Source: an uncultured bacterium
Lineage (GTDB): Bacteria > Bacteroidota > Bacteroidia > J057 > JADKCL01
DNA: 64,000 nucleotides
Assembly (NCBI GenBank): GCA_963923035.1
Contig: CAWUKT010000002.1
Span: 38,574 to 102,573, forward strand
Direction: 5' to 3'
Every line of letters begins with the position of its first letter. The stretch's first letter is position 1. Both the position numbers and the translations under genes were made by a program. Shown here piece after piece: positions 57,515 to 58,503 of the stretch. Under the pieces are notes generated by a model. The model saw only the letters and a list, made by a program, of their open reading frames with translations, had not been told where the DNA came from and searched no databases.

Positions 57515-57541
57515 TCGAACCTACAGCTTAGAAATAATAAG

Positions 57542-57562
57542 GGGCCGGATGTGATCCGGCCC
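57542..57562. terminator. Bidirectional-looking terminator hairpin between bcp and small ORF A
   Basis: Stem GGGCCGGA (57542-57549) / TCCGGCCC (57555-57562) with a TGTGA loop. On the + strand TATTTGTTTGATTT follows it. On the minus strand it lies downstream of the ORF A stop. Confidence 0.65.
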
Positions 57563-57615
57563 TATTTGTTTGATTTCATGAAATTGAACAAGAGTGAAAT
57601 GCTGGGTGGGGCATT

Positions 57616-57705
57616 TTATCTCCGGGCTGCTCGGACAGCGGCATAAAGACCCAGTCCGATTACGGCTGAGAGAATAGCAAGCCCCGTCAATGTTTCGACT
57701 GACAT
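57616..57705 (-). CDS. Small hydrophobic peptide A (29 aa): MSVETLTGLAILSAVIGLGLYAAVRAARR
   Basis: ATG at 57705, TAA at 57618-57616. One TM helix plus an Arg-rich tail. It shares the TGLAIL core with peptide C, with differences only at third codon positions. A promoter-like TTTG-N20-TACATTTG lies upstream. Confidence 0.5.
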   Translation of the reverse strand: MSVETLTGLAILSAVIGLGLYAAVRAARR

Positions 57706-57775
57706 AATGGTAATATTAATTGGTTATTGACTTGTCTTTAAAAGTATTTCAGACAGCGAAATAGTACAGTTACAA

Positions 57776-57807
57776 CAAATGTACATTTTTTCCATAATGA
57801 ATCCAAA
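57776..57807 (-). promoter_or_regulatory. Bacteroidota-type promoter candidate (-33 TTTG / -7 TACATTTG) upstream of peptide A
   Basis: On the minus strand TTTG (57807-57804) is followed by a 20-nt spacer and TACATTTG (57783-57776), about 70 nt upstream of the ATG at 57705. Confidence 0.4.
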
Positions 57808-57855
57808 TTCAATTGAATTACAAGTTGTTATGGAAAACATATGGTGACAGTAGGT

Positions 57856-57882
57856 AAACAAAAAGTCGGAGCCATTTCCGAC
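57856..57882 (-). terminator. Terminator hairpin downstream of small ORF B
   Basis: Stem GTCGGA (57865-57870) / TCCGAC (57877-57882) with a 6-nt loop. On the minus strand TTTTTGTTT follows it. Confidence 0.5.
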
Positions 57883-57922
57883 TCCGACTAGCAAGGATAA
57901 TTCGCGAGTGACTTATTTTTTC

Positions 57923-58003
57923 TCATGCAAAGCGACGGCTAAATGCGACACCGCTCATGAACATGCAGGTAAACATTGCTGCGGAGATCAAAATGGTTTC
58001 CAT
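57923..58003 (-). CDS. Small hydrophobic peptide B (26 aa): METILISAAMFTCMFMSGVAFSRRFA
   Basis: ATG at 58003, TGA at 57925-57923. It starts 47 nt after the peptide C stop and has the same architecture (TM helix plus RR near the C-terminus). Sequence similarity to A and C is weaker. Confidence 0.35.
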   Translation of the reverse strand: METILISAAMFTCMFMSGVAFSRRFA

Positions 58004-58050
58004 AATAACTGTAATTAAAGGTGGTACTTAGGTGAATGTTGTTGTTGGGT

Positions 58051-58137
58051 TTAGCGCCGCGAGGTGCGCATGGCCATAATTCCGCCCCCGATGATCAGGG
58101 TAGTAAGAATGGCAAGTCCGGTAATCATCTCAATCAT
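58051..58137 (-). CDS. Small hydrophobic peptide C (28 aa): MIEMITGLAILTTLIIGGGIMAMRTSRR
   Basis: ATG at 58137, TAA at 58053-58051. Paralog of peptide A (E-x-[IL]-TGLAIL-[ST]..I-G-x-G...R-x-x-RR). An A-rich region precedes the start codon. Confidence 0.5.
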   Translation of the reverse strand: MIEMITGLAILTTLIIGGGIMAMRTSRR

Positions 58138-58503
58138 GGTTCTAAGGTTTAAGGTTTTAAATTTTATTGCTGAATGTGCTGTTGGTCATTCTTTGGTTGA
58201 CTTTACGCCCCTATTTCCCCTTCCGTTCCCCATTTTCAGCCAACGGAGCCCAAAACCCAGTGAAATTCCTTGTTTTGGCAGTGAATGGCCTTCATTTCCC
58301 AGCCACACCTCGCGCTCACGTTTTCGCAACCCAAAATTTATTCTCCACACCAAAACCGCCACTTAAACAACCCCAAAACCCACACCTCGGAATAATTTTT
58401 CCACAATTCACCATAAATTCACATTATACCAACCATTTTTACCACTCACTTCTGGTCTTTTTTCTAATTTTACCCCCAAGAAACATACACGACCCCCAAC
58501 ATA

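Follow-up and report, generated by a model that had tools for sequence, protein, structure and literature searches.

Does the long and apparently empty gap between the genes bcp and glnN of an uncultured member of the Bacteroidota contain genes of its own and, if so, what kind of products do they encode? The gap spans about 1 kb (positions 57515-58503) of a stretch of 64,000 nucleotides (nt) from contig CAWUKT010000002.1 (assembly GCA_963923035.1), which we hereafter call the window. Within the gap lie three ATG-initiated open reading frames (ORFs) on the minus strand, A, B and C, each coding for a hydrophobic peptide of 26-29 residues. On comparative grounds they are shown to be real, unannotated genes maintained by purifying selection across seven lineages. 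Their products probably form a clade-restricted family of single-pass membrane microproteins that would bind a partner and be expressed from two minus-strand transcription units.

Genes in the bcp-glnN gap

Finding short ORFs in this region is not in itself surprising. About 25 ORFs of at least 20 codons overlap the gap when both strands are counted, and the mere presence of A, B and C is not beyond chance. Conservation lifts them above it, since intact orthologous frames and a synonymous excess in relatives make them stand out from chance ORFs. None of the remaining gap ORFs has a conserved counterpart in these relatives, with the exception of one of 100 residues on the plus strand, which matches them only as the antisense shadow of C. 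We rejected as genes both this ORF and another of 140 residues on the same strand, such plus-strand frames being either the antisense shadow of C or not conserved. The gap has a G+C fraction of 0.32-0.48, against 0.50-0.62 in the flanking genes.

The comparison includes the window, six further lineages of uncultured Bacteroidota (contigs L048, L049, L050, L053, L060/61 and L062) and a near-identical strain, L047, found in a Joint Genome Institute (JGI) metagenome by exact look-up of Bcp. Relatives were traced to their contigs through homologs of GlnN (71-84% identity) and Bcp (70-87% identity); in the syntenic lineages, the two proteins are respectively 71-84% and 74-83% identical to those of the window. 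Every contig of the clade carries a minus-strand ORF of A/C type, 27-29 codons long, about 100 nt past the end of bcp, and gene A is convergent with bcp in every clade lineage. A second copy, at the position of C, occurs in three relatives (L048, L049 and L050), and gene B in just two lineages, the window and L048.

The substitutions accumulated in these ORFs carry the mark of selection on proteins. Synonymous sites are saturated (proportion of synonymous differences, pS, 0.54-0.84; synonymous divergence, dS, at least 0.96 and mostly above 1.5), and Nei-Gojobori estimates of the ratio of nonsynonymous to synonymous divergence (dN/dS) are 0.04-0.40 for A, 0.22-0.47 for C and 0.24 for B. In the two closest pairs of A, synonymous changes make up 17 of 24 and 15 of 19 differences, against expected shares of 31% and 28% (binomial P = 6e-5 and 7e-6, respectively); the synonymous excess gives P = 0.01-0.07 for the pairs of C and P = 0.036 for B. 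Variable columns at codon positions 1, 2 and 3 number 19, 9 and 25 in A and 21, 9 and 24 in C. Only the sense frame is free of stops in all orthologs (7/7 for A, 4/4 for C), among which start, stop and length are also conserved. Mean nucleotide identity is 0.63 in the ORFs, 0.58-0.59 in the adjacent 87-nt flanks and 0.54 in shuffled sequence, and the gap outside the ORFs is barely alignable among relatives. Because the nucleotide identity of the ORFs hardly exceeds that of their flanks, the conservation is at the level of the protein and not of an RNA or a DNA site. Comparison of the window with L047 shows 1 substitution (I to V in C) in the 258 nt of the ORFs, against 22 in 340 nt beside glnN.

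The initial annotation, made from the window by itself, had read the three minus-strand ORFs with their peptides and the 47-nt spacing between C and B, and had noticed that the codons of the TGLAIL stretch of A and C (acg/acc, ggg/gga, ctt/ctt, gct/gcc, att/att and ctc/ctt) differ only by synonymous third-position changes, from which it deduced purifying selection on proteins. All three ORFs are present as described, the codon reading is correct, and the saturated dS, low dN/dS and synonymous excess point to the same selection; the comparison that it proposed, namely whether the frames are conserved in syntenic relatives with dN/dS well below 1, was run and had a positive outcome. It had also described a tandem family of three. 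This holds for A and C, paralogs whose peptides are 50% identical, and for the common design of all three peptides, but not for the relatedness of B, which is not matched by the profile hidden Markov model (HMM) of the A/C type, has no detectable homology to A or C, and shares with them a predicted architecture only.

Table 1. Peptide genes, candidate control elements and orthologous peptides
Feature	Contig	Position	Strand	Description
Gene A	window	57616..57705	minus	29 aa, MSVETLTGLAILSAVIGLGLYAAVRAARR; candidate single-pass membrane microprotein
Gene B	window	57923..58003	minus	26 aa, hydrophobic, METILISAAMFTCMFMSGVAFSRRFA; between C and the common C-B terminator
Gene C	window	58051..58137	minus	28 aa, MIEMITGLAILTTLIIGGGIMAMRTSRR; paralog of A
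End of C-B unit	window	57856..57889 (hairpin 57889-57864)	minus	intrinsic-terminator-like hairpin and T-run, read from the sequence
End of A	window	57542..57562	both	GC-rich hairpin, terminator-like either way; common to convergent bcp
TTTG-N20-TACATTTG	window	57776..57807	minus	perfect match to Bacteroidota -33/-7 consensus, 78 nt before A start
TACTTTTA	window	57739..57746	minus	weaker TAnnTTT(A) box ~41 nt before A start; alternative candidate promoter of A
Three direct repeats CCATTCAC, AATTTCAC, CCGTTGGC	window	58239..58288	minus	exact 21-nt period, 8-nt units
AAC-N17-CGTA	window	58204..58227	minus	ECF-sigma-like -35/-10 pair, 66 nt before C start
A-position ortholog	L048			MSLETLTGLALLTAVLGLGLYAALRAARR
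A-position ortholog	L049			MSIELLTGLALLTAVIGIGLFTALRTKR
A-position ortholog	L050			MGIELLTGLALLTVVIGIGLITALRTKR
A-position ortholog	L053			MSIEVIGGLAILGGLIIVGVFSALLSKR
bcp-adjacent A/C-type ortholog	L060			MTPETITGLVVLAAVIVTGLLTAVRLSKR
bcp-adjacent A/C-type ortholog	L062			MSIEVLGGIAILGAVVIIGVLSAFAVKR
C-position ortholog	L048			MEAITGIGILATLLIIGAVTAIRTARQ
C-position ortholog	L049			MLPEALTGIIIFSAVIVFGLLTAVRLSKK
C-position ortholog	L050			MDAETLTGIIFLTAILIGGLLAARRTARR
B ortholog, sole one found	L048			MITTITISAMIFATMFISGAVFSRSVS

How far the family extends was approached through several searches. A scan of genome contigs based on GlnN returned only distant loci (at most 58% identity), none with bcp nearby or with a peptide homolog, and the A/C profile HMM, run in six frames, detected no further copy in the 64-kb window, near glnN at 50 other loci, or after bcp in L063/64 or in Rufibacter radiotolerans (L066). 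A degenerate DNA pattern extending from E4 to R/K28, which recovers 8/8 canonical members with 0 chance matches expected in the window, gave only two chance matches in metagenome contigs, both in long frames of high-GC contigs, and none in viral contigs; its absence from metagenomes is weak evidence, given the poor coverage of the clade, as the scan also missed L047. At the protein level, a concatenated A+C+B query yielded 68 word-sharing candidates, none at E <=10, and peptide A with a 6-residue upstream extension had no match at E <=0.001 among 1.84 billion representative proteins. Exact look-up of ten family sequences in a collection of 15 billion proteins returned only the C variant of L047 (MIEMITGLAILTTLIVGGGIMAMRTSRR), an unnamed JGI singleton. 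Gene callers missed A, B and C in every contig except one. The JGI gene in L047 (4692-4903; 212 nt, 28-residue product) extends from 3 nt inside the start codon of C (L047 4906) as far as the stop codon of B.

The order FAA hydrolase, M23 peptidase, bcp, a gap of 644-1046 nt and glnN is found in L048, L049, L050/51/52, L053 and L062. L060/61, two metagenome-assembled genomes from NCBI, keep bcp and not glnN, the glnN-side adjacency is lost in L054-57, and L063/64 (Bcp 70% identical) and R. radiotolerans keep M23 peptidase and bcp together with a different gene directly after them. By Bcp, the closest named relatives are Cytophagales (Rufibacter, Fulvivirga). The block formed by FAA hydrolase, M23 peptidase and bcp is syntenic from the clade out to R. 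radiotolerans (Bcp 70%), and the genes that follow bcp vary: the peptide genes and glnN, other genes in L060, a phosphatase with a Por secretion tail in L063/64, and transketolase genes in L066. The lone peptide of L060/61 (L060 3583-3672) is closest (66%) to the C-position copy of L049 (4485-4574) and not to any A copy, so that copies may have been exchanged, converted or lost differentially among members of the clade. As to glutamine synthetase itself, contigs L022 and L023, with type III enzymes about 51% identical to that of the window, are filed under archaeal Methanomethylophilaceae and Firmicutes Acutalibacteraceae bins; in identity and gene length the enzymes agree with entries from Bacteroidaceae and Alistipes (L020, L041), and the taxonomic placement of the contigs may be due to binning contamination.

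Terminators and candidate promoters

The two hairpins reported by the initial annotation after B and after A were both located in the sequence. In L048 an equivalent of the hairpin and T-run likewise follows B; in L049 and L050, both of which lack B, it comes directly after C. After A, a strong hairpin stands at the same place in L048, L049, L050, L053, L060 and L062, with stems of different sequence. In these terminators it is the position that is conserved and not the sequence.

Bacteroides promoters have the consensus TTTG, 19-21 nt, TAnnTTTG. On its minus strand the gap has a single TAnnTTTG, which belongs to the element that the initial annotation had singled out upstream of gene A (Table 1). 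This element does exist and matches the consensus perfectly, but it is peculiar to this genome: the perfect housekeeping match is seen in the window only, and the boxes of the relatives read TAnnTTT(A/T/C) and stand 40-71 nt upstream of the start codon. It is the weaker box, roughly 40 nt from the ATG, whose position is kept (-41 in both the window and L050, -40 in L053 and -48 in L049), and similar TAnnTTT blocks appear in the upstream alignment in L048, L060 and L062.

A different architecture, conserved and absent from the initial annotation, precedes gene C. It begins with three direct repeats whose clade consensus is tCCATTCAC, laid out as tCCATTCAC-N13-CCATTCAC-N13-CCATTCGC. Three-repeat arrays with an identical period occur in L048 (4699-4748), L049 (4704-4753) and L050 (4668-4717); the array is absent from L053, L060 and L062, all without gene C, and there is no second one within the 64-kb window. 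In each of the four C-bearing genomes, an AAC-N16/17-CGTA pair begins 61-62 nt past the first repeat and is the sole match on the minus strand of the gap; CGTA sits 66-95 nt upstream of the ATG of C, and the spacers between the elements are scrambled. Promoters of the extracytoplasmic function (ECF) class are recognised by AAC at -35 and CGT(A) at -10 (PMC5758882), and sequences in the window, L048, L049 and L050 conform to this pattern (AAC and CGT(A/C), 16-17 nt apart). Phased direct repeats that border a promoter are a typical kind of activator site, an example being AgrA-type regulators, which bind direct repeats just ahead of their promoters (PMC4227749). The three repeats are probably the binding site of a transcription activator and, taken together with AAC-N16/17-CGTA, look like an activator site plus an ECF-type promoter. 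The substitutions that separate the window from L047 spare repeats 1-2, AAC and CGTA, and one falls in the already degenerate third repeat.

Could these elements serve glnN instead? A TAnnTTTG box, the probable glnN promoter, is found on the plus strand about 39 nt before the glnN ATG in L048 (4961), L049 (4962), L050 (4962) and L053 (3962); in the window, the variant TAATTTTA can be read where the box of the relatives sits (~58465). Because this box is only about 39 nt before the ATG, most of the 1-kb gap would not be needed for the core glnN promoter, and the repeats more probably serve gene C. A role in the regulation of glnN is less likely, as L053 and L062 keep the bcp-glnN adjacency without the repeats or C.

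The 340 nt at the glnN start (58165-58503) differ from L047 at 6.5% of positions; the other 650 nt of the gap show 5 differences and a single indel of 3 nt, and identity reaches 99.85% in the M23 peptidase. The same segment is strongly G/T-rich on the minus strand, the GC skew of the plus strand going down to -0.71. Its divergence could be due to a recombination tract, to mutational bias or to relaxed constraint.

Predicted function and competing explanations

The peptides are predicted to form a single transmembrane helix, a feature conserved across species together with their length, and their best 19-residue Kyte-Doolittle windows average 1.9-2.65. Among 11 sequences of A/C type, M1, E4, G8, G19 and A23 never vary, residue 28 is R or K throughout, and T7 and L12 are found in 9 and 10 of them, respectively. 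On the helix, positions 4, 8, 19 and 23 lie inside an arc of some 100 degrees, so the conserved surface would be a single helix face, rich in small residues and fit for helix-helix packing. The orientation of membrane peptides can be deduced from the positive-inside rule: with an acidic N-tail and a basic C-tail, the N-tail is predicted to lie outside and the C-tail in the cytoplasm.

Taking these features together, we favour as probable a family of membrane microproteins whose most likely mode of action, to judge from the conserved Gly/Ala face, is the binding of a partner in the membrane. The peptide would be inserted with its acidic N-terminus out and its Arg/Lys tail in the cytoplasm, and the invariant residues, spaced i/i+4 and about three helical turns apart, would form a small-residue face for packing against another transmembrane helix, either from a larger membrane protein or from the peptide itself. 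Such peptides would serve as accessory or regulatory subunits comparable to AcrZ, KdpF, MgtS and CydX, and not as poisons. They would be expressed from two independent minus-strand transcription units, each keeping its terminator: gene A would be the core copy, under a housekeeping-type promoter, and gene C, with B where present, an add-on paralog switched on by an ECF-type sigma factor and an activator bound to the three phased repeats. A and C(-B) would thus constitute a constitutive-plus-inducible pair.

Several observations weigh against this reading. The argument for a single conserved face is drawn from just 11 short sequences, and the gene context reveals no partner, as the neighbours Bcp and GlnN are soluble enzymes and the FAA hydrolase and M23 peptidase are soluble as well. 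Small conserved membrane peptides can also be toxins, purifying selection being compatible with both roles. With 7 specified bases, the ECF-like promoter has a low information content and is supported only by a position conserved among four related genomes; neither a sigma factor gene nor a regulator gene is linked to it or to the repeats of C. All the relatives are metagenomic contigs and the whole case is built from sequence; moreover, the seven lineages are not independent, because several are closely related (the pairs L049/L050 and L053/L062).

The resemblance to toxins had been the proposal of the initial annotation, which cited TisB, Fst and Ibs/Ldr. In full, such an explanation would make these loci similar to type I toxin-antitoxin systems, with membrane-depolarising peptides silenced by antisense or divergent small RNAs and arranged in tandem as in Ibs/Sib, Ldr/Rdl and Zor/Orz. 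Their general aspect would suit such a role: the peptides are small and hydrophobic, with one helix and a tail that is charged, the paralogs stand in tandem within a long intergenic stretch, and the distribution is narrow and lineage-restricted, as is usual for type I systems. Their length and predicted hydropathy are within what is expected of the small (<60 aa) hydrophobic type I toxins, and a profile of small, hydrophobic, tandem intergenic peptides has been used in searches for new ones (PMC2887945). However, Pfam and NCBIfam gave no match to any toxin family (Hok, Ldr, TisB, Ibs, ShoB, Fst, TxpA and others) or small membrane regulator (A, B and C at E <=10; nine members at E <=1). The only plus-strand terminator in the gap is that of bcp, in scans that are blind to an RNA made from an unrecognised promoter, and in five genomes the plus strand has no position-conserved TAnnTTTG facing A, B or C. 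Nor do the untranslated regions show conservation of their nucleotide sequence. In minimum-energy and centroid folds the start codons are predicted to be unpaired within A/U-rich leaders, unlike those of translationally inert toxin mRNAs. With predicted transcript ends, the C-B mRNA is no more structured than its shuffles (z = -0.68), the z of -3.46 of the A transcript comes from its terminator and a stem inside the ORF, and neither is predicted to be a highly structured toxin mRNA with a sequestered start. Gene A has, in addition, a perfect match to the housekeeping promoter consensus in this genome. The analogy gained no support from homology, antisense signals or structured starts, and we hold a type I system to be unlikely. 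Quite improbable in our opinion would be membrane-toxin-like or stress-effector microproteins, the first described in Bacteroidota, with an unusual control logic in which a constitutive copy and paralogs induced by an ECF-type sigma factor and an activator on the three phased repeats take the place of antisense RNA control; if this were true, their induction would depolarise or remodel the membrane in response to envelope or oxidative stress.

The phased direct repeats immediately 5' of the promoter of a tiny peptide gene bring to mind another possibility, that of exported or signalling peptides, bacteriocin- or pheromone-like precursors induced via phased repeats like the LytTR-controlled loci of Firmicutes, for which AgrA-type regulation offers a precedent (PMC4227749). 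We consider it very unlikely: the peptides have no leader or cleavage motif, being entirely made of a hydrophobic helix and a basic tail as is typical of a retained anchor, and the conserved neighbourhood (FAA hydrolase, M23 peptidase, Bcp, the gap and GlnN) includes no kinase, regulator, transporter or modification gene. To our knowledge, the repeat sequence resembles no established consensus. Finally, the ORFs might be incidental and the conserved entities small RNAs or regulatory DNA of bcp or glnN, in a gap that holds many chance ORFs of similar length and where gene callers skipped A, B and C in all contigs but one. This explanation appears extremely improbable in view of substitutions of protein-like character (a synonymous excess, codon position 2 the least changed, and conserved start, stop and length) in ORFs whose nucleotide identity barely surpasses that of the flanks. 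Unconstrained DNA would offer an in-register ATG followed by 27 sense codons and a stop with a probability of about 2e-4 per genome. Rfam searches at E <=10 returned noise only, and the glnN promoter of the relatives, about 39 nt from the glnN ATG, is far from the ORFs. A partner-binding membrane microprotein family is the explanation that we consider most likely.

Comparison with known systems

The best match in the libraries searched was phrog_4546, a family of small phage proteins without known function, with E = 2.7e-4 for peptide A over residues 1-22, including E4, G8 and G17-L-G-L-Y-A22. An example of it, ORF30 of Lactococcus phage 712 (L067 1501-1611; 36 aa, MNVESVIGKAIIIALIGLGLYAFFALVDLIKTKGRK), coincides with peptide A at 14 of the first 22 residues, from Met1 through GLGLYA. 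However, only 3 of 9 members of the peptide family match phrog_4546 at E <=1, tblastn against the phage collection gives E = 2, the C-terminal part is unlike, the host phylum is unrelated, the peptide locus is chromosomal and syntenic, and the pattern scan of viral contigs found no member. We do not assign the peptides to phrog_4546, and the likeness is probably compositional or convergent. Peptide C also resembles the IPTL-CTERM sorting signal (TIGR04174), in which a short motif is followed by a hydrophobic helix and an Arg cluster (16.2 bits, E = 0.009). Sorting signals are tails of large secreted proteins, whereas the peptides are free-standing, with their own start, promoter and terminator; we rejected this identity, as the score is below the cut-off of 20.5, 1 of 9 members matches and the context is wrong.

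The peptides are like the type I toxins TisB, Fst, Ibs, Ldr, ShoB and Zor in their small size, hydrophobicity, charged tail, tandem intergenic arrangement and narrow range. They differ from them by the absence of homology and of conserved antisense signals, by their apparently accessible start codons, and by candidate promoters, housekeeping-type for one copy and ECF-like for the other, that would stand in place of RNA-based control.

New families of small transmembrane proteins are emerging by the thousands from metagenomic surveys, and the one described here, though new as a family, belongs to a kind of gene that is well known. It adds a well-supported and previously unannotated small-protein family to a phylum with few known small membrane proteins, and it is a clean example of genes concealed in a long "empty" intergenic gap and passed over by standard gene callers. 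Their coding nature is established by comparison alone, despite saturated synonymous sites. The coexistence of a housekeeping-type copy with a paralog behind an ECF-like promoter and phased repeats provides a concrete and testable regulatory hypothesis. The practical weight of the finding is limited, as the clade is uncultured.

In the reading that we favour, the closest parallels are AcrZ, KdpF, MgtS, MgrB and CydX. These proteins have no sequence similarity to the peptides, which are not encoded beside a membrane complex, and the analogy would be one of function. What they have in common is a length below 50 residues, one helix with charged ends and small residues on one face, and the fact of having been missed by annotation, with one paralog of the peptides appearing to be stress- or signal-inducible as well.

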